Shown here piece after piece: positions 5,557-60,751 of a stretch of 64,000 nucleotides of DNA. Location of the stretch: the sequence record NC_054902.1; one strand, given 5' to 3'. The stretch comes from Enterobacteria phage Aplg8. The notes beneath the pieces are model-generated. The model saw only the letters and a program-made list of their open reading frames with translations. It was not told where the DNA came from and did no database searches. The position numbers were made by a program, and so were the translations under genes. Position 1 is the first letter of the stretch. Each line of letters opens with the position of its first letter.

Positions 5557-7016
5557 AAACCAGTTACCTCATGAAAATCGCCAAATACATCTTCGAACGT
5601 ATTAGCTTTAGTTTTATCTTCACGTAAACGAATCGCAATCGGAAGAAATAATTTAACGTAATCAGTGCGGCCATCAGATTTTAACCAACCGTTGCATTCG
5701 CACTCTAGAATTTTTCCAATATAATAATTTTGGTTTTCCATAATGCGAGTACGGTCAAGTTCATGCGATTTTACACCGGCTTTATCTTTTAAGCCTGAAC
5801 CAGCATTTACTTTAATTTTTCCACACTCTGATTCAAGAATAAATCCACCTGCTTTAGTAGGGTCTTTACGGTGAGGATAAATTCCTACAATTTTTAAATC
5901 AACATCAATTACTTCTTTAAATTTATAGAGATTTTTTGAACGAGCATTTTCCCATAACCCATCAACGTTTTTGAGAATAATACCTTCAAGACCTTGATCA
6001 ATATACTTTTTGTAAATTACCTTAGCTTCATCTAGGTTATTTACTACCTGGTTTTCAATTAAAATTACTTTATCATAGCCTGATGTCATTTGTTCTAGTT
6101 TAGAAAAACGTACATCATATTTTAAACGAAACGCCGGAAGACCGTATATTTCTACCAACGGGACATAATCCCAAACCTGAAACTTCATGCATTGAGCTTC
6201 TTTTTCAGAAATGGTTCCTTTTAAGGATTTATTGGCGATTCCATTAGAAGTAGTACGAGATTCCGCTACTTCGGCGAATTCTTTAGCTTTACTAATTTCA
6301 GGATAAGCATCAAAAAGAAAATCTAGGCCTTCTGGTTCCTTTTTAACTTGCTCATGGTATACCAATTCGCCATCAATTAACACGCCTTCTGGATGAATCT
6401 GGCGGGCTTCAGCAGTCATTTTGATTAACTCTTCCTTAAGAAGATCTAATCCTAGATATTCATTACCAGCTCGCGATAAAAGACGAACATCATCTAATTC
6501 ATCACCTCTAACTTCAGCAAAACATCGAGCTCCATCTGCTTTTAACTGCGCAAAGGCTGGAAATTTGATATTCTTACTAATGCCCTTTTCATCATAAGAA
6601 CTTGCCAGCATTTGAGGTTGTTCAGGAATTAAACCTGGCCAAACTTTGTTTGCAATAGATACTGAAGCACCGCATTCAAGGTCTCGCATCATCACTCGAC
6701 GCAAAACTTCAACATCATCCTTTTTACCATCGGTGATATATCCAGTCAATTCCTCAATTGCAGCATTTCCGGTCAATTTCCGAGTAGCTAACGTGAATTC
6801 AATGAAGTCAAGCATATCGGTAATAGTCAGCATTCCAAAACTCTGGGTAGCAATACCAGGTTTAGGCCATTTCTTGATATAATACTGTAACCCACGAGAA
6901 TAAGTCAGACGATATACCCGTTTAAGCAATTCATTATCTTTATTCTTTTCAAGAATTGCTTGCTTCTGCTTAGTTGATCCAATAGATGCTATTTCATTCA
7001 GAATTTTAAGAATCAT
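5553..7016 (-). CDS. 30: ATP-dependent DNA ligase
   Basis: 487 aa, same length as T4 gp30; start MILKILNEIASIGSTKQKQ; adenylation motif KADGAR. Confidence 0.95.
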   Translation of the reverse strand: MILKILNEIASIGSTKQKQAILEKNKDNELLKRVYRLTYSRGLQYYIKKWPKPGIATQSFGMLTITDMLDFIEFTLATRKLTGNAAIEELTGYITDGKKDDVEVLRRVMMRDLECGASVSIANKVWPGLIPEQPQMLASSYDEKGISKNIKFPAFAQLKADGARCFAEVRGDELDDVRLLSRAGNEYLGLDLLKEELIKMTAEARQIHPEGVLIDGELVYHEQVKKEPEGLDFLFDAYPEISKAKEFAEVAESRTTSNGIANKSLKGTISEKEAQCMKFQVWDYVPLVEIYGLPAFRLKYDVRFSKLEQMTSGYDKVILIENQVVNNLDEAKVIYKKYIDQGLEGIILKNVDGLWENARSKNLYKFKEVIDVDLKIVGIYPHRKDPTKAGGFILESECGKIKVNAGSGLKDKAGVKSHELDRTRIMENQNYYIGKILECECNGWLKSDGRTDYVKLFLPIAIRLREDKTKANTFEDVFGDFHEVTGL

Positions 7017-9660: not shown

Positions 9661-9697
9661 TTTTATTCTCCGAGATGTTTAATTGCGGTACAGGTAT

Positions 9698-9726
9698 ATA
9701 ATATCATATCCTGTACCAAAGTAAAC
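9698..9726 (-). promoter_or_regulatory. Early promoter (GTTTAC-N17-TATTAT)
   Basis: Minus strand GTTTAC then 17 nt then TATTAT; 8-bp inverted repeat GGTACAGG/CCTGTACC brackets the -10. Confidence 0.5.
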
Positions 9727-13075: not shown

Positions 13076-13105
13076 TTTGTTTTCCTCATTTGTTTTGGTA
13101 GAGCT

Positions 13106-13135
13106 ATAATATCACAACTCTACCGTAAAGTAAAC
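13106..13135 (-). promoter_or_regulatory. Early promoter (GTTTAC-N18-TATTAT)
   Basis: Consensus elements on the minus strand; 7-bp inverted repeat GGTAGAG/CTCTACC brackets the -10. Confidence 0.5.
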
Positions 13136-16444: not shown

Positions 16445-18056
<1,612 letters not shown>

Positions 18057-25251: not shown

Positions 25252-25494
25252 TCAAATAGACTTTTTCACAATTTTCCAATCAGCTTTAAACTGATCAACG
25301 TCAGAGTGATAAATCCAAAATCCTGCGCTTTCACCGTCTTCATAAAGCGGACACCCATCGCATTCATCTTCCCATCCCATATCACGCAAAAGATGTTCAG
25401 CTTTTTCAATGAGTTCAGAATCTTTACCGATGATATTAAAATACCATTTACCTCTAACTTCTGAATCTTTGATGCTCTGACGTTGTAATCTCAT
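25252..25494 (-). CDS. Hypothetical protein, 80 aa
   Basis: Track ORF trimmed to Met20 (MRLQRQ), which has an AAGGAG Shine-Dalgarno and lies downstream of an early promoter. Confidence 0.45.
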   Translation of the reverse strand: MRLQRQSIKDSEVRGKWYFNIIGKDSELIEKAEHLLRDMGWEDECDGCPLYEDGESAGFWIYHSDVDQFKADWKIVKKSI

Positions 25495-25519
25495 TTTATT
25501 CTCCTTAGTTGATAAGGCT

Positions 25520-25549
25520 ATAGTATCACTACCATAGCCTGTTGTAAAC
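25520..25549 (-). promoter_or_regulatory. Early promoter (GTTTAC-N18-TACTAT)
   Basis: Consensus elements; 7-bp inverted repeat AGGCTAT/ATAGCCT brackets the -10. Confidence 0.5.
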
Positions 25550-26510: not shown

Positions 26511-26540
26511 TATAGTACCATGGAAGGACAAGGATGTAAA
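26511..26540 (-). promoter_or_regulatory. Early promoter (GTTTAC-N18-TACTAT) with A-rich upstream element
   Basis: Consensus elements; upstream A-tract gtgaaaaaaatttgaaataaaaaa. Confidence 0.5.
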
Positions 26541-26560
26541 CCGTTTTGTGAAAAAAATTT

Positions 26561-26590
26561 GAAATAAAAAAGGGGACCTCTAAAGGTCCC
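26561..26590 (-). terminator. Rho-independent terminator after gene 32
   Basis: GGGGACC-loop-GGTCCCC hairpin followed on the minus strand by TTTTTTATTT. Confidence 0.65.
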
Positions 26591-27621: not shown

Positions 27622-28275
27622 TTAATACTTACAAGATTTCACAGTTTCAATAAAAACTTTTTTAGCTTCCTGTGAATCGATATTTAAAATTTTTCTATAA
27701 GCTTTTAACTTTATAGAATAATTGTTCCAAACTAAATTATCAGTTTGTTCATCATGTTTATCAATTATATTTAAAAACGAATCAAGCAAGATAAACGTCT
27801 CAAACGAAATTATATTCGATTGAAGTAGTTTAAAAATATAACTTGATTGAACTTTTGGATTATACTCAAAGATTTCTTTAAAAGCAGAAACTTCAACTTT
27901 TTTACTAAAATAATAAATGTTGCGAATATCTTCTTCAAACTTAAATTTAATTTGCTTTAAACGTCCGATATATTCACGATAAAACACAAGTGCATCAGCG
28001 TCAGAGATGTCACCAATCCAAGCATCTTGGTTAGCAACCAAATTGCTTATAAAGATTAAAGCAAGTTCCTTTAATTTATATTTTTCTGATAACTTCTGGA
28101 AAAAATACTTATCCCTTCGCTTTTGATAAGCGGCATCAGACACCCGCATGCACCAATTATACTTAATAACATCATACTTTCCATTCATATGTTGTTTTAT
28201 CATTAAGTATAATTTATAAACTGATTTACCATCAATGTATCTTTCACCACCAGCAGGCATGCGGAGTTTAATCAT
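27622..28275 (-). CDS. 59: Helicase loader gp59
   Basis: 217 aa as T4 gp59; synteny 32-59-33. Confidence 0.85.
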   Translation of the reverse strand: MIKLRMPAGGERYIDGKSVYKLYLMIKQHMNGKYDVIKYNWCMRVSDAAYQKRRDKYFFQKLSEKYKLKELALIFISNLVANQDAWIGDISDADALVFYREYIGRLKQIKFKFEEDIRNIYYFSKKVEVSAFKEIFEYNPKVQSSYIFKLLQSNIISFETFILLDSFLNIIDKHDEQTDNLVWNNYSIKLKAYRKILNIDSQEAKKVFIETVKSCKY

Positions 28276-40378: not shown

Positions 40379-40412
40379 AACGGTTTATTCATTCCACTTA
40401 GTTGATATGGAT

Positions 40413-42875: not shown

Positions 42876-42916
42876 TTTCTAATCTCCGTAATTCTGTATC
42901 AGTAGTTGATAGTTGT

Positions 42917-42946
42917 ATAGTACCACAGTATGCTTTGGTTGTAAAC
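42917..42946 (-). promoter_or_regulatory. Early promoter for motA (GTTTAC-N18-TACTAT)
   Basis: Consensus elements; leader ACAACTATCAACTACTGATACAG. Confidence 0.55.
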
Positions 42947-42971
42947 CGTTTTGTGAAAAAAATTTTTGAAA

Positions 42972-42999
42972 TAAAAAAGGGAGAGCCGAGGCTCTCCCT
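42972..42999 (-). terminator. Rho-independent terminator after the gene 52 operon
   Basis: GGGAGAGCC-gag-GCTCTCCC hairpin followed on the minus strand by TTTTTTATTT. Confidence 0.65.
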
Positions 43000-46194: not shown

Positions 46195-46222
46195 TTTCTG
46201 TTCCTCCGTAGTTGATAGGGTA

Positions 46223-46252
46223 ATAGTACCACGGAAGAACAGTCTTGTAAAC
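46223..46252 (-). promoter_or_regulatory. Early promoter (GTTTAC-N18-TACTAT)
   Basis: Consensus elements; leader TACCCTATCAACTACGGAGG. Confidence 0.5.
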
Positions 46253-46735: not shown

Positions 46736-46765
46736 ATAGTACCACGGTCCTTGTGGTACGTAAAC
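46736..46765 (-). promoter_or_regulatory. Early promoter (GTTTAC-N18-TACTAT)
   Basis: Consensus elements; leader ACAACTATCAACTGATACGG. Confidence 0.5.
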
Positions 46766-53198: not shown

Positions 53199-53566
53199 TC
53201 AAATTTAATGGCTTGAAGAAGACTAATAATTCTCAAGCGACTTCTTTCATCTTTAACTGTAAAAGAAAGAGGGTCACCAGATTTCATAGTAATAGTACAT
53301 TCAAAATCAAAATCTTCTGTGACTTCTTCGAAGAAGTCAAATTCTTCATCATAAATTAGAACATTACTCTGACAACTATGAAGAATTTTTCCATCATTTC
53401 CAGATGCTGTACTAATCATTGTAACATTATGACCTTTCATATCTTCAACGATAAATTCACTAGTCAATATTACGGCATTAATAGAACTATTCCTATTACT
53501 AGCAGAAAGTAGATATTTCTGTTCTTCACCTTCACGAATACGATATTTCTTACCGATTTTAAACAT
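53195..53566 (-). CDS. Hypothetical protein, 123 aa
   Basis: ORF between goF region and gene 39. Confidence 0.45.
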   Translation of the reverse strand: MFKIGKKYRIREGEEQKYLLSASNRNSSINAVILTSEFIVEDMKGHNVTMISTASGNDGKILHSCQSNVLIYDEEFDFFEEVTEDFDFECTITMKSGDPLSFTVKDERSRLRIISLLQAIKFE

Positions 53567-53568
53567 AA

Positions 53569-53744
53569 TTACCCTTTAAGTAAGTCGTAAAATCCACCAT
53601 TCACATGCTTAGGAGCAGAAGGCCGACGAATAGACAGACGATGACATTTAGGGCAAACATCATTTTCTCGTTCAGAAATCTTTTTAATTTTTTCATATTC
53701 ATGCCCGCAATCTTCGGATTGGCATTTATAATCATACATTGGCA
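53569..53744 (-). CDS. Zinc-ribbon protein (FmdB-like), 58 aa
   Basis: MPMYDYKCQSEDCGHEYEKIKKISERENDVCPKCHRLS: CxxC...CxxC spacing typical of a zinc ribbon; below the track size cutoff. Confidence 0.45.
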
Positions 53745-53747
53745 TAA

Positions 53748-54173
53748 TTATTCCTTAAAGTGAGCTTTCAACATCTGATACAAGGACCATGCATGTTCAT
53801 TATTTTCAATAGTAACTTTCATGACTGGGAATTCTGTGAAATCTTCTATTTGTTCTTGCTCTTTCTCTTCCTGCTCTTGCTCTTCAACTGCCTGATATGG
53901 ATTTTCCACTTCATCAAAGAACCCAGCTTCGTTAGTAGAAAGCCAAATAAAGTTTTCGTCAAGGATATCACCATGTGTTGCATATCCAACTGTGCCAGTA
54001 GATGTCACAATTTTAGTAGGACGACCAAGATGGTCAACATCTAAAATTTTAAAAGGATGCATACCTAAACGGCGTGCATAGATTCCGTTATCAGTATGAT
54101 CTTTAATAAAATTTTCTTGAGCTTGTTTATTTTTAAATTGATACCATTTATTAACTTCAAATCTAATAGCCAT
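53748..54173 (-). CDS. goF: Hypothetical acidic protein, 141 aa (possible GoF)
   Basis: Same length as T4 GoF and correct relative position; acidic [12 protein letters not shown] tract. Identity by position and length only. Confidence 0.4.
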
Positions 54174-54421
54174 TAATAAATTTCCTTCCAGTAAGTTGTA
54201 CCGTCTTCAGTGATTTCACGGAATACACCATAAATCGGTTGTTTATCACCAACCTTTTCATACACATAAACCGAAGTCAAGTGAGTAAACTTGATGGTGT
54301 GTTCCTTTTGAACTACTACCAAATCTGGATCGAATAATACATCTTCAAATTCGTCATTAGTGCAATTCTGAACAATTTTACGTTTCATTACAATTTCCTC
54401 ATTAATTGAACAGTGGAGCAA
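54173..54421 (-). CDS. Hypothetical protein, 71-82 aa (possible Cef)
   Basis: From the internal Met the product is 71 aa, the length of T4 Cef; position only. Confidence 0.3.
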
Positions 54422-54683
54422 TGCGTTTCAGAAGAGTAGCAGCACCTTTGGCGAATTTTACATCATGAAAAACAGTTTCTTCTTCCGTTACAACACGAGC
54501 TTTAATGTTTTCACAATCCCAATTTTTGCGAACAATCTTCAAAAGCTGCAGTAAATCTTTACATTCAGCAATATCGATAACACATCCACGAGAATCTTCC
54601 ATTATCGCACGATAACCGTAAGCCATACCATAATTGTTGAAAGATTGCTCGATGATAATTAAGTTTTCCATTTTATTCTCCAA
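54402..54683 (-). CDS. Hypothetical protein, 93 aa
   Basis: ORF with GGAGAA Shine-Dalgarno downstream of a palindromic promoter-like element. Confidence 0.45.
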   Translation of the reverse strand: MENKMENLIIIEQSFNNYGMAYGYRAIMEDSRGCVIDIAECKDLLQLLKIVRKNWDCENIKARVVTEEETVFHDVKFAKGAATLLKRIAPLFN

Positions 54684-54695
54684 GTTGTTTTCTGT

Positions 54696-54738
54696 ATCAG
54701 TAGTTGATATTGATATAGTACCATAATCAACTACTGAT
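54696..54738 (-). promoter_or_regulatory. Promoter-like element with 13-bp perfect inverted repeat around the -10
   Basis: ATCAGTAGTTGAT (54696-54708) and ATCAACTACTGAT (54726-54738) flank TACTAT; -35 is non-consensus. Confidence 0.4.
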
Positions 54739-54778
54739 GTATATAGTTTTATGAAAAAATTTTAAACTTTATGCAAAT

Positions 54779-55198
54779 TTATGCTAAAGCTGCTTCGCAC
54801 CATTTTTTAATTTGGAATTCAGGAACTACCATGAACTGGCCTGCAAAAACAATATTGTAGAGCTTGACACCATCTTCTACCCAACGGTCCGAAATAAAAC
54901 CAGCGACTTGATTCGTTGTCCATGGAGTTCCATCTGTTGCCGCCGCAATTGTGAATTTATGGTCTTTTACAACTAAAACTGAAGAACAAAGTTTCCATTT
55001 AAATGCGCTTTCTTCTGGCTCAATGAACTGACTTGAGACATAACCAATGTTACCATCAGCGTCACGAACTTTAACCTCGTTACGACCAAAAACTGGATCA
55101 CTTACAGAAAGAACTTCAACCAGCTTTCCTGCAACTTTAGAACGAGAAGCAACGGATACATATACGTAATCACCAGTAGAGAGATTTACAATATTCAT
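54779..55198 (-). CDS. Tandem paralog 1 (139 aa) of a three-gene family
   Basis: N-terminal SVASRSKVAGKLVEV and C-terminal GFISDRWVEDGVKLYNIVFAGQFMVV shared with the next ORF. Confidence 0.5.
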   Translation of the reverse strand: MNIVNLSTGDYVYVSVASRSKVAGKLVEVLSVSDPVFGRNEVKVRDADGNIGYVSSQFIEPEESAFKWKLCSSVLVVKDHKFTIAAATDGTPWTTNQVAGFISDRWVEDGVKLYNIVFAGQFMVVPEFQIKKWCEAALA

Positions 55199-55207
55199 AA
55201 TAATTCC

Positions 55208-55681
55208 TTAAGCTTTACGAGGAGAAGCATAACGAGTGATTTCAGATTCTTCAACAACCCGGAAGTCACCTAAAAATACAATATTGTATAGCTTTTTACC
55301 GTCTTCAATCCATTGGTCTGTGATGAAGCCACACATCCTATCAGTTTTACTTGGACCAGCGAAATCATCAATATAATCGAATTCTTCATCAGTTACAAAT
55401 TCAACGCCTTTACACAACGCCCATTTAAATTGTGCATTAGACTCAGTGGATTCAACTTCTTCAACAGAAGCAAAATGAGAGCTAACACGAGTTTCCAGAA
55501 ATTTAGGACTTACGTAAGCGTACTGAGTTTCAGTTTTTCCAGAACTAGGAATGATTCGAACTTTAACTTCTATAACACGACCAGTACCATTAGTACGAAG
55601 TCCTACCACTTCAACTAGACGACCTGCAGCTTTAGAACGAGATGCAGACGATACACGCTTAATTTCACCGATAGTAATCAT
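55208..55681 (-). CDS. Tandem paralog 2 (157 aa) of a three-gene family
   Basis: N-terminal SSASRSKAAGRLVEV and C-terminal GFITDQWIEDGKKLYNIVFLGDFRVV. Confidence 0.5.
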   Translation of the reverse strand: MITIGEIKRVSSASRSKAAGRLVEVVGLRTNGTGRVIEVKVRIIPSSGKTETQYAYVSPKFLETRVSSHFASVEEVESTESNAQFKWALCKGVEFVTDEEFDYIDDFAGPSKTDRMCGFITDQWIEDGKKLYNIVFLGDFRVVEESEITRYASPRKA

Positions 55682-55725
55682 AATTTTTCTCTCTTTGCTG
55701 TTAAGATTTATTCTCCATGAGAGCC

Positions 55726-55753
55726 ATTATAACAGGCTCTCTATAAAGTAAAC
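55726..55753 (-). promoter_or_regulatory. Early promoter (GTTTAC-N16-TATAAT)
   Basis: Consensus hexamers with a 16-nt spacer on the minus strand. Confidence 0.4.
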
Positions 55754-56248
55754 TTAATTAAGGATATTAATTACTGCACTACGTGGAACTACACTAAAAT
55801 CACCTGCATGAACAACGTTCAGAAGTTCAACACCGTCTTCAATCCACTGATCAGTTACCCATCCACTCACTGGACCTGCGAACGGACGTCGAATTGAAAC
55901 AGCTTTACACAACAAATCAGTAGGCTCAATAGGCTTAACCAGAGTACCGTACATACAAGCGATATCCATATCAATACAGATGTCTTTAACGGGTTCTACT
56001 TCTTCAATCAACAGTTCAAAGTCGGTGCTTGGAAGGGCGGTAGTAGAAATTGTACCGTATGAATTTTTAATTTCTAAGAATAACCAAGGGCCTTCAGCTT
56101 GTTTGATGAAGTTAACAATAGTGAAACTATTACCTTGAGTGGCGCCTAAAATTTCACAAAACTTTTCATAAGCTCGCACTGAAGCACCATACCAGTTGAT
56201 TTGCTTTTCGTCTTTCAGGATGTAAGTAGCTGTAGTACTGATATTCAT
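55754..56248 (-). CDS. Tandem paralog 3 (164 aa); possibly MotB-like by position
   Basis: C-terminal GWVTDQWIEDGVELLNVVHAGDFSVV shared with paralogs 1 and 2; lacks their N-terminal motif. Confidence 0.45.
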   Translation of the reverse strand: MNISTTATYILKDEKQINWYGASVRAYEKFCEILGATQGNSFTIVNFIKQAEGPWLFLEIKNSYGTISTTALPSTDFELLIEEVEPVKDICIDMDIACMYGTLVKPIEPTDLLCKAVSIRRPFAGPVSGWVTDQWIEDGVELLNVVHAGDFSVVPRSAVINILN

Positions 56249-56260
56249 GATGTTTTCCCC

Positions 56261-56803
56261 TTAATCTAAGGTAATAAAGCCTTTTAATTCGGCATGTGAC
56301 TTGCGGAACATTACTTGATGACCGCCAATGATAACTTGGTCATCAGGTACTTCGTATACAGCGAGATAAAATCCTTTAGAAGCTAATTCTTCACGCTCTT
56401 CTCGTGTGAACCATCTCATCATATCATATTCGCTAGCGAAAGCAAAATGATAAAGAGCTATAAACCATCCTGGAATATAGTGATCTACGCCTACATATTC
56501 TTCTTTCTCAAAATTAGTATTAATTGCTATATTAGCATTTTTAACTAATAATTTGTCTTCATGCGGCACAGGAATTCTTTTATTATCATTACTATGATGC
56601 ATAAAATTAGGTCTGTCATAACCTACGTGTAATAACCACTCTTCACTCCATGAATCTATTATACTCCTGTACGGAGTTATTTGAACACAAAGATCTCGAC
56701 GTATTGTTATAGCATCTTCATAATTAAGAATACTAAATGATGATTCAACACGATAAATTTTCATTTTATTATCCTCAGTAGCTATGGTGTTATAATACCA
56801 CAA
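56261..56803 (-). CDS. Hypothetical protein; probable start at MKIYRV (about 56764), 167 aa
   Basis: Internal Met has a GAGGATAA Shine-Dalgarno; the track start lies inside the upstream promoter. Confidence 0.45.
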   Translation of the reverse strand: MWYYNTIATEDNKMKIYRVESSFSILNYEDAITIRRDLCVQITPYRSIIDSWSEEWLLHVGYDRPNFMHHSNDNKRIPVPHEDKLLVKNANIAINTNFEKEEYVGVDHYIPGWFIALYHFAFASEYDMMRWFTREEREELASKGFYLAVYEVPDDQVIIGGHQVMFRKSHAELKGFITLD

Positions 56804-56821
56804 CTAACCGAGGAAGTAAAC
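56792..56821 (-). promoter_or_regulatory. Early promoter (GTTTAC-N18-TATTAT)
   Basis: Consensus elements on the minus strand. Confidence 0.5.
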
Positions 56822-60664: not shown

Positions 60665-60694
60665 ACTATAACATTTTTACTTTAACTTGTAAAC
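60665..60694 (-). promoter_or_regulatory. Early promoter for srd (GTTTAC-N18-TATAGT)
   Basis: Consensus elements on the minus strand. Confidence 0.5.
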
Positions 60695-60751
60695 AACTTT
60701 ATGTAAAAATGCTTTAAAAATTTCATGGTATAATGAATCTAAGTCCTTCCA

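Follow-up and report, generated by a model that had tools for sequence, protein, structure and literature searches.

The consensus of T4 early promoters is reportedly documented by Liebig & Rueger 1989, Wilkens & Rueger 1994 and Miller et al. 2003. According to a review, these promoters have extra consensus regions besides the UP element, the -35 region, the TGn motif and the -10 region (PMC2988021), and a comparative study described base preferences at positions -3 to -1 in related phages (PMC1524935). In the phages RB49 and phi1, promoter-early stem-loops (PeSLs) join an early promoter to a stem-loop, which mostly overlaps the -10 region or lies between the -35 and -10 regions; one such structure lowered lacZ expression to the same extent as the rrnB T1 terminator (PMC2839356; Arbiol et al., 2010). 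Elements at the internal-protein (IP) loci of T-even phages are classed as analogues and not as homologues; they are built on T4 early promoters and have weaker, AT-rich stems (PMC2839356, citing Repoila et al., 1994). The e, soc, 49, I-TevI and segB hairpins of T4 contain a late or middle promoter and fold only in read-through RNA, in which their 3′ arm buries the Shine-Dalgarno sequence or the AUG (PMC3014915, PMC2988022). Some T4 early promoters are preceded by intrinsic terminators.

The DNA analyzed here, called the window, is the whole stretch of 64,000 nucleotides from Enterobacteria phage Aplg8 (NC_054902.1). Base composition (35-36% G+C, negative GC skew) and megablast searches identified it as part of a T4-like phage (Tequatrovirus) of the RB51/RB68 type with RB51, RB68 and Sf23 as closest relatives. 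Over the region 53500-56000, identity amounts to 98.5% with Shigella phage Sf23 and to 95.5% with RB51/RB68. The early genes around the palindrome described below are encoded on the minus strand in the order motB.2, motB.1, motB, motB-like paralogue, 89-aa ORF, cef, goF, and 39.2. In T4, an identical promoter is located between motB and cef at about position 6606, and the element is referred to here as the motB/cef promoter. Most of the downstream ORF was lost in T4, with the junction 8 nt past the ATG, and an out-of-frame remnant is left.

Like the PeSLs, the motB/cef element fuses an early promoter to a stem-loop over the -10 region, and it is intergenic, beside variable non-essential ORFs, with a conserved promoter block and divergent flanks. 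It differs from them by an A/T-rich stem without a polyG/polyC (GGGG...CCCC) tract, is non-homologous to the RB49 elements, and lies at the motB/cef locus and not at an IP locus. Promoter-embedded stem-loops are a known kind of element and the motB/cef element is another such member, for which an analogy with the PeSLs, as their T-even counterpart, appears to be the best reading. We consider it somewhat better than an even guess that this is a T4-type early promoter with a PeSL-like hairpin in read-through RNA that acts as a boundary between transcription units. We infer the role of the hairpin, as well as the transcription start, the read-through and the attenuation.

The promoter and its near-palindrome

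The features of the locus are listed in the direction of transcription.

54779..55198, minus strand: MotB-like gene (motB paralogue), upstream of the promoter
54746..54770, minus strand: UP-element-like A/T-rich tract AAAGTTTAAAATTTTTTCATAAAAC upstream of the -35 region, fitting the consensus aAAAtaTTTcA.AAA of 32 T4 early promoters
54738..54743, minus strand: -35 hexamer TATACA, sharing its last base with the start of the 5′ arm
54696..54738, no strand assigned: 43-bp near-palindrome with 20-nt arms (85% complementary) and 3 nt between them; its centre is the CTA of the -10 region
54726..54738, minus strand: 5′ (upstream) hairpin arm ATCAGTAGTTGAT, filling the spacer from -30 to -18 and lying outside the promoter's own transcript
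54721..54723, minus strand: extended -10 element TGG (TGn)
54715..54720, minus strand: -10 hexamer TACTAT, apex of the near-palindrome
54701..54709, minus strand: +1 box TATCAACTA, with the start deduced from the spacing
54696..54708, minus strand: 3′ hairpin arm ATCAACTACTGAT, first 13 nt of the own transcript according to the predicted start
54678..54681, minus strand: Shine-Dalgarno sequence GGAG, outside the hairpin, starting 15 nt past the hairpin base with 14 unpaired nt between
54402..54671, minus strand: 89-aa ORF (RB51ncORF009c, phrog_3720), the gene that the promoter serves first, with cef, goF and 39.2 downstream of it

The site is a standard T4-type sigma-70 early promoter with a -35 region slightly off consensus. 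The first part of the minus-strand sequence reads AAAGTTTAAAATTTTTTCATAAAAC TA TATACA TCAGTAGTTGATTATGG TACTAT ATCAA T, followed from the predicted start onward by ATCAACTACTGAT ACAGAAAACAACTT GGAG AATAAA ATG. The UP tract, the TGn-TAnnnT form of the -10 region and the consensus of the +1 region (T-1, A+1, T+2, C+3) are all present. With T4 early promoters, which have a GTTTAC(A/T)-type -35 region 17 ± 1 bp upstream of the -10 region, the site shares the UP tract, the 17-bp spacer between the -35 and -10 regions, TGn, the TAnnnT -10 region and conservation around +1. It differs from them in the -35 hexamer TATACA, which matches the T4-type TTTACA at five of six positions, in an A at position -36, where 28 of 32 T4 promoters have a G, and in a spacer that is the exact complement of the promoter's own positions +1 to +13. 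TG at -15/-14 was a selection criterion for the promoter sets, which is why TGn is found in every promoter of these sets. Both the promoter and the consensus are already known, and taken alone the site is a textbook T4 early promoter that adds little to the picture. An antisense promoter on the plus strand was considered and rejected; TGATATAGT is present there, but a credible -35 region and plus-strand genes are absent.

An earlier, sequence-only reading of this DNA had reported a 13-bp perfect inverted repeat that brackets the -10 element with an interval of 17 nt. This was confirmed on the plus strand, where ATCAGTAGTTGAT occupies positions 54696-54708 and ATCAACTACTGAT positions 54726-54738, with TACTAT on the minus strand at 54720-54715; the repeat actually belongs to the 43-bp near-palindrome. 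In the predicted fold, a 2x2 internal mismatch separates a perfect outer stem of 13 bp from an inner stem of 5 bp, which includes one G.U pair and ends in a 3-nt loop. The arms ATCAGTAGTTGAT and ATCAACTACTGAT have G or C at 4 of 13 positions, and the 3′ arm is itself a mini-palindrome (ATCA-ACTAC-TGAT). Three distinct perfect 13-mer inverted repeats with a loop of ≤ 60 nt were found in the window compared to 0.13 expected from 100 dinucleotide shuffles, and the inverted repeat at 54696-54738 is beyond chance. The folding energy of the palindrome was -20.2 kcal/mol (z = -5.3) as RNA, and -11.5 and -10.9 kcal/mol for the minus- and plus-strand sequence, respectively, as DNA.

Since the +1 box is located 5 nt past the -10 region, transcription is predicted to begin with the A at 54708 (about position 6594 in T4), where the 3′ arm begins. 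This A belongs to tATCAAC and lies at the usual distance of 7 nt after the -10 region. Starting at the first base of the 3′ arm, the promoter's own transcript would lack the hairpin, and it was predicted to be unstructured (z = 0.16). The palindrome exists because the spacer is the reverse complement of the first 13 bases that the promoter transcribes itself. With a spacer complementary to the start of the own transcript, the hairpin should form solely in RNA that reads through from upstream genes.

The presence of the palindrome in close relatives, which had been named as a check, was evident from a 66-bp promoter core with 100% identity in at least 368 phage records, among them T2, T4 and T6; a further 126 records showed 95-99% identity. 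In most records, conservation was limited to the promoter block (window positions 54775-54664, query 86-197), and in hundreds of genomes the motB paralogue upstream and the ORF downstream are variable around this conserved block. Scans of IMG/VR contributed just seven loci for further orthologues and six for further promoters, numbers too small to be of use, and no Rfam match with E ≤ 1 was obtained across 54300-55100.

The conserved segment at the predicted start site

TATCAACTA occurs six times in the window, always on the minus strand, compared to 0.97 expected copies, and none of 100 shuffled sequences reached six. Five of the six copies are located exactly 5 nt past the TACTAT of a GTTTACA-N17-TGnTACTAT promoter; the preceding -10 hexamers are at 25525, 40418, 42922, 46228, and 54720. 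A leader motif behind early -10 regions, which had been noticed from the letters, is thus borne out at these five promoters, but the gap is always N5 and not N5-8, and the promoter at 46741, previously given as about 46736, carries the one-base variant TATCAACTG in place of the exact TATCAACTA. The four paralogous copies are as follows.

42903..42911, minus strand: +1 box of the motA early promoter, -10 region 42922-42917; terminator upstream, without a promoter hairpin
46209..46217, minus strand: +1 box, -10 region 46228-46223; a hairpin pairs the spacer with the leader including GGAGG
40399..40407, minus strand: +1 box, -10 region 40418-40413
25506..25514, minus strand: +1 box, -10 region 25525-25520; an 11-nt inverted repeat brackets and overlaps the -10 region

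The promoter at 42922 corresponds to the motA early promoter of T4, for which GenBank entry Z48569 annotates GTTTACA as -35 region and TACTAT as -10 region (minus_10_signal). In T4, TATCAACTA is present ten times on the minus strand compared to 1.7 expected copies, nine of them directly behind an early -10 region, and all eight minus-strand copies of ATCAACTAC lie within early promoters. The aligned 32 T4 early promoters have T-1 and A+1 in 26 cases each, T+2 in 23 and C+3 in 20, and their consensus from the -10 region onward is TAcTAT A..ccTATCAAcTa. TATC shows a single offset, exactly 5 nt past the -10 region, in 14 of these promoters, and the spacer has essentially zero sequence information. 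The conservation downstream of the -10 region that the sequence-only reading had pointed out is consequently real and locked in position. TATCAACTA(C) is the start-site and initial-transcribed part of the known promoter class and no separate site. As the position of the +1 box is fixed and the flanking spacers diverge freely, a constraint set by RNA polymerase or by the mRNA 5′ end seems probable. Most likely, the +1 box tunes the choice of the start site and the escape from very tightly bound promoters.

A different explanation would be an operator, i.e., a phage or host DNA-binding protein that recognizes TATCAACTAC at +1, binds the palindrome as a dimer and modulates or shuts off early transcription. 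The strong, strand-specific over-representation of the motif agrees with this idea, and the two half-sites would be 30 bp apart from centre to centre, about three helical turns; moreover, the mechanism by which T4 early promoters are shut off is described as unknown or incompletely understood (PMC2988021, PMC3014915). However, just one of the 32 T4 promoters and one of the 16 promoters in the window is palindromic for TATCAACTAC, and the repeats at the others are unrelated in sequence. The motif is found at one fixed offset from the -10 region, as expected for a constraint by RNA polymerase or the start site, and about 40% of the early promoters lack it, yet a joint shut-down was reported (PMC3014915). 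Furthermore, no candidate protein was identified. We searched the 16 window and 32 T4 promoters for the same palindrome at several promoters, as expected for a shared operator, and did not find it; as the arms of the other promoters are complementary only to their own leaders, a shared protein operator is unsupported. Given these findings, we regard an operator as very unlikely, and the proposed common protein site layered on sigma-70 recognition was not upheld, since the motB/cef promoter alone is palindromic for TATCAACTAC and the offset of the motif is fixed.

In a narrower form, the +1 box TATCAACTAC might be the site of a factor that abruptly shuts off the T4 early promoters minutes after infection, an assumption to which we give very little credence. 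Such a factor could recognize the box either in the DNA or in the nascent RNA, at its 5′ end. If the assumption were correct, the motB/cef promoter would provide a double, palindromic site. For studies of how the early promoters are shut off, the +1 box with its fixed position is an obvious and cheap target for mutation.

Predicted hairpins in read-through RNA of early promoters

Shorter inverted repeats of 7-8 bp had been proposed at other -10 regions. Such repeats do exist in the window, but most are longer than stated.

9687-9694 / 9710-9717: inverted repeat at another -10 region, 8 nt, perfect
13097-13124: inverted repeat at another -10 region, 14-nt arms, 79% complementary
25515-25525 / 25530-25540: inverted repeat at another -10 region, 11 nt, 91%
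46198-46212 / 46228-46242: inverted repeat at another -10 region, 15 nt, 87%
56779-56806: inverted repeat at another -10 region

When the segment from -36 to +36 was folded, 9 of the 16 early promoters in the window reached z < -3.5, and in almost all of these hairpins, base pairing between spacer and leader leaves the -10 region in the loop. As a control in T4, the spacer and -10 region of each promoter were joined to the 31 other leaders, by which composition and motifs were preserved. The native sequences of the 32 promoters had an average MFE of -13.3 kcal/mol compared to -8.0 kcal/mol for the chimeras (Wilcoxon p = 9e-5), and 14 of them, including the motB/cef promoter, were below all of their 31 chimeras. 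In about half of the 32 T4 early promoters the spacer is complementary to the own leader, a recurrent and largely known design of which the motB/cef palindrome is one case. The sequences of the arms vary among the promoters, e.g., GTTGACAAGATT/AATCTTGTCAAC and GCTGACAAGACT/AGTCTTGTCGG, and even the frd.2 promoter has AGGCTATGGTA/TACTATAGCCT in the window (-15.6 kcal/mol) and a GGGTAGTAG-type stem in T4 (-18.4 kcal/mol), both of which fold. Complementarity is therefore kept without the sequence being kept, which favours a structure of the nucleic acid and disfavours a common protein site. In RB69 (Mosigvirus), where six promoters passed the filter, the signal was not significant. A search of the literature for inverted repeats described previously at early promoters of T4 provided nothing usable, and no genome-wide data set of T4 start sites was found.

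The hairpins of the T4 promoters were more stable in the sense than in the antisense RNA, both overall (-13.3 compared to -9.7 kcal/mol) and for the 18 strong hairpins (-18.6 compared to -13.0 kcal/mol), and G.U pairs made up 40 of 277 pairs in the sense and 7 of 225 in the antisense strand. Part of this bias is compositional, because the composition-matched chimeras also favoured sense over antisense, by 1.4 kcal/mol. Selection on the hairpins at the RNA level is thus favoured but not proven. The suggestion of the sequence-only reading that the palindrome is an RNA-structure site fits the data and is likely correct, except that the structure would not be located in the promoter's own leader, given a predicted start at the 3′ arm.

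A terminator scan revealed no intrinsic terminator between the upstream promoter at 56797 and the palindrome, and the transcripts of the upstream MotB-like gene presumably read through the palindrome for this reason. The hairpin itself was rejected as an intrinsic terminator on either strand: a U tract is absent, ACAGAAAAC follows the hairpin, the stem is not G+C-rich, and the scan was negative. Seven T4 promoters have an intrinsic terminator just upstream, and for these native minus chimera was -0.1 kcal/mol, i.e., there was no specific hairpin. For the 25 promoters without an upstream terminator, the mean was -6.8 (Mann-Whitney p = 0.011 vs. the seven). This association is confounded by the promoter subfamily, as the terminator-preceded promoters (n = 7) are largely one related cassette. 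By its sequence, the motB/cef promoter belongs to the TTTTTTCA(C/T)AAAAC ... TACTAT ... TATCAACTACTGATACAG subfamily, the other members of which are mostly preceded by terminators and have no hairpins; at the motB/cef promoter an upstream terminator is absent and a hairpin is found instead. Hairpin and terminators occupy the same place in the logic of the cassette, which has either one or the other. They differ in that the hairpin possesses neither a G+C-rich stem nor a U tract; without the latter it is not a canonical intrinsic terminator, and canonical termination is not expected.

Translational gating as in T4 e, soc, 49 and I-TevI was also considered. In this case the hairpin in read-through RNA would block binding of ribosomes to the downstream gene, which would be translated only from the transcript of its own promoter. 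For late and middle promoters of T4, gating is an established mechanism (PMC3014915, PMC2988022). The geometry fits, as the 5′ arm would be missing from the own transcript with the predicted start, and in read-through RNA 12 of the 32 T4 early promoters have a completely paired Shine-Dalgarno sequence. On average, the probability that it is unpaired was 0.29 in the read-through RNA of the T4 promoters and 0.62 in the own transcript. Chimeric upstream regions had nearly the same effect as the native ones, with 0.33 compared to 0.29 (p = 0.43), and sequestration of the Shine-Dalgarno sequence as a general specific function was rejected on this basis. Its burial is bimodal, with about 12 promoters being fully buried and about 8 more open than the controls.

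At the motB/cef promoter, the likeness to the e, soc, 49, I-TevI and segB hairpins consists in a promoter inside a hairpin that folds in read-through RNA only, and the difference in the promoter being an early one with the Shine-Dalgarno sequence outside the hairpin. A 131-nt fold contained a weak outer helix in which UUUUUCA pairs with UGGAGAA; this helix, however, has G.U pairs at two positions and closes an internal loop of 13+13 nt, and the motB/cef hairpin stops 14 nt short of GGAG. For the identical T4 promoter, the probability of an unpaired Shine-Dalgarno sequence was 0.29 in the own transcript and 0.18 in the read-through RNA, with 0.33 for the chimeric controls. Sequestration at the motB/cef promoter was rejected as well, since GGAG lies outside the hairpin and its accessibility is hardly altered. 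We consider gating highly improbable as an explanation of this element; it is real at some promoters, but neither the common denominator nor the function at the motB/cef promoter.

In the preferred interpretation, the boundary between transcription units, the spacer would have been turned into the reverse complement of the promoter's own first 13 transcribed bases, which would place the -10 region at the tip of a hairpin. RNA starting at the motB/cef promoter would contain the 3′ arm alone and be unstructured, and RNA reading through from the upstream motB cluster would contain both arms and could form the hairpin of about -20 kcal/mol. The hairpin might thereby serve as an RNA-level boundary that attenuates, processes or marks the read-through transcripts and gives the upstream mRNA a stable 3′ structure, in place of the intrinsic terminator of other early promoters. 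Such a role would agree with the one proposed for the stem-loops of RB49/phi1 and with the AT-rich analogues at the T-even internal-protein loci (PMC2839356). Elsewhere, hairpins of this type also bury the Shine-Dalgarno sequence at a number of promoters, which is not the case at the motB/cef promoter. T4 early promoters may thus have either an intrinsic terminator upstream or a hairpin formed by their own spacer and leader in read-through RNA only, and this genome-wide pattern may be the sole part that is new. If it holds experimentally, T-even phages insulate their many tandem early transcription units at the RNA level. The PeSL idea would then reach beyond RB49-type phages and the internal-protein loci of T-even phages to the whole set of T4 early promoters, and there would be a concrete rule for the annotation and engineering of promoter cassettes in T4-like genomes.

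Variation of the element in related phages

Orthologues of the motB/cef hairpin are almost invariant. In a sample of variant records, the substitutions fell within the part of the leader that separates the hairpin from the ATG and the arms were intact, except for phage TB004, in which an A-to-G exchange in the 3′ arm retains a U.G pair. The related promoter of Mosigvirus LF82-9 lacks the hairpin, and its spacer is unrelated. In phage Pinarejo (PP925831), the arms are the same, but the 17-nt loop between them is the exact reverse complement. Its flipped form, TATACA-17-TATAGT with a preceding TG, contains an extended -10 region at the same spacing, which is preserved because the element is a near-palindrome. 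Over the full query, the loop-inverted form was found only in Pinarejo, and seven further records had ≥ 99% identity over a shorter stretch. According to the T4 GenBank entry, an earlier report had given the inverted complement of a 14-bp stretch at the early promoter Pe133295. The Pinarejo and Pe133295 cases may be rare real inversions or artefacts of sequencing or assembly.

Both cases speak for a reading in which the palindrome would be a functionless product of mutation that is tolerated in an unconstrained spacer; the inverted 17-nt loop of Pinarejo is the expected outcome of a strand switch or a recombination between inverted repeats. Template switching at quasi-palindromes or gene conversion between cassettes could extend a partial self-complementarity, and the TATA-like -10 region and the leader ATCA-ACTAC-TGAT are already partly self-complementary. 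As the 13-nt leader is a mini-palindrome, just the five bases at its centre have to be altered to give the reverse complement, and the spacer in which this would happen carries almost zero sequence information for promoter function. On the other hand, about half of 32 independent promoters have the same geometry with different arms (p = 9e-5), the folds favour the G.U-rich sense strand, hairpins are depleted downstream of terminators, and at least 368 genomes carry the element in unaltered form. A mere by-product of mutation hence appears rather unlikely to us, although it deserves more weight than the other alternatives.

The cassette of promoter and hairpin might alternatively serve as a DNA linker, i.e., a patch of homology for the shuffling, deletion and inversion of neighbouring non-essential genes and perhaps also a structure-prone hotspot, as proposed for PeSLs. 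PeSL mini-circles and crossovers inside PeSLs are documented (PMC2839356), and in hundreds of genomes the promoter block is conserved between a variable motB paralogue and a variable downstream ORF. The loss of most of the downstream ORF in T4, with its junction 8 nt past the ATG, and the inverted loop of Pinarejo would also be in line with such a function. However, homology by itself requires neither a hairpin nor a G.U bias of the sense strand, the T4 deletion junction is located within the ORF and outside the palindrome, and loop inversion over the full query was seen in 1 of about 500 records, apart from the seven with ≥ 99% identity over shorter stretches. We therefore consider a linker function unlikely as the explanation of the element, while it would be compatible with a role of the hairpin as a boundary in RNA.

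The promoters of the phage N4 virion RNA polymerase are in hairpin form, and fimS and hin are invertible promoter switches. The motB/cef element resembles these systems by an inverted repeat bracketing promoter elements and by the flipped loop in one relative of Aplg8. It differs from them in being read as duplex DNA by the sigma-70 holoenzyme, by the absence of a recombinase and by arms of only 13 bp with a 17-bp loop. Furthermore, the near-palindrome provides TGnTAnnnT in either orientation, so that flipping would not silence the promoter. As a remote possibility, the inverted repeats around the -10 region could permit occasional flipping of the promoter core, as seen in the Pinarejo sequence.

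Loop orientation at promoter palindromes

The homologue of window 54685-54750 in Escherichia phage Pinarejo (PP925831.1, 5883-5948; positions 301-366 of the fetched sequence L014) has 13-bp arms unchanged from those of the window, and its 17-nt loop is the exact reverse complement (ATTGATATAGTACCATA). This flipped form still reads as TATACA-17-TATAGT with TG ahead of it, and Pinarejo was the only record to match it across the full query. The flip could reflect a real inversion, via the inverted repeats or template switching, or an assembly artefact. In the GenBank record of T4 (AF158101), a 14-bp stretch at 133300-133313 (L005:33300-33313 in the fetched T4 sequence) is annotated as 'inverted complement of previously reported sequence; corrects the early promoter Pe133295'. 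This stretch falls at the early promoter that we placed at T4 133307, which is bracketed by an inverted repeat of its own and whose window homologue has its -10 at 13111-13106. The correction at Pe133295 resembles the Pinarejo loop flip.

Other inverted repeats and terminator-plus-promoter cassettes

At another early promoter, a palindrome with 24-nt arms (79%) at window 60667-60716 overlaps the -35 region (AAGTTGTTTACAAGTT). The presence of two perfect inverted repeats within ORFs indicates that the excess of such repeats in the window extends beyond promoters:

17418-17431 / 17481-17494, 14 nt, within the coding region of ORF 16445-17605
28155-28167 / 28202-28214, 13 nt, within the coding region of ORF 27622-28275

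A recurrent terminator-plus-promoter cassette consists, in this order, of a G+C-rich hairpin, TTTTTTATTT and AAAATTTTTTCACAAAAC-GTTTACA, and its promoters lack the hairpin formed by spacer and leader:

Window, cassettes at 42930-42990 and 26525-26590
T4, cassette promoters at 163649, 146851, 130286, 58756, 55360 and 15264

Gene content around the promoter block

Of the 668 phage records that match, most conserve the promoter block at window 54664-54775 alone, and the motB paralogue upstream of it and the ORF downstream vary. In this the block resembles a conserved linker joining variable genes. The downstream 89-aa ORF (phrog_3720, window 54402-54671) is mostly missing in T4 (L002:2483-2600, a fetched T4 sequence), where its first 8 nt (ATGGAAAA) are fused out of frame to its last ~17 codons (FAKG...), so that the promoter there serves cef directly. 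Three tandem ORFs of 139, 157 and 164 aa on the minus strand at 54779-56248 share a C-terminal ...TDQWIEDG..L.N(I/V)V..G.F.VV... motif and appear to be MotB-family paralogues, of which T4 has fewer than these three.

Early leaders and translation starts

The translation start context GGAGAATAAAATG is repeated near-verbatim at several early genes:

Window 54669-54681, GGAGAATAAAATG-type start context
Window 25490-25505, same type
Window 46722-46700, same type
Other early leaders, same type

RegB, an endoribonuclease, is known to target GGAG in early intergenic regions (PMC3014915). The predicted first 13 transcribed bases at window 54696-54708, AUCA-ACUAC-UGAU, form a mini-palindrome by themselves and can fold into a weak 4-bp stem at the extreme 5′ end of the mRNA; a second location of this feature is 42899-42910.
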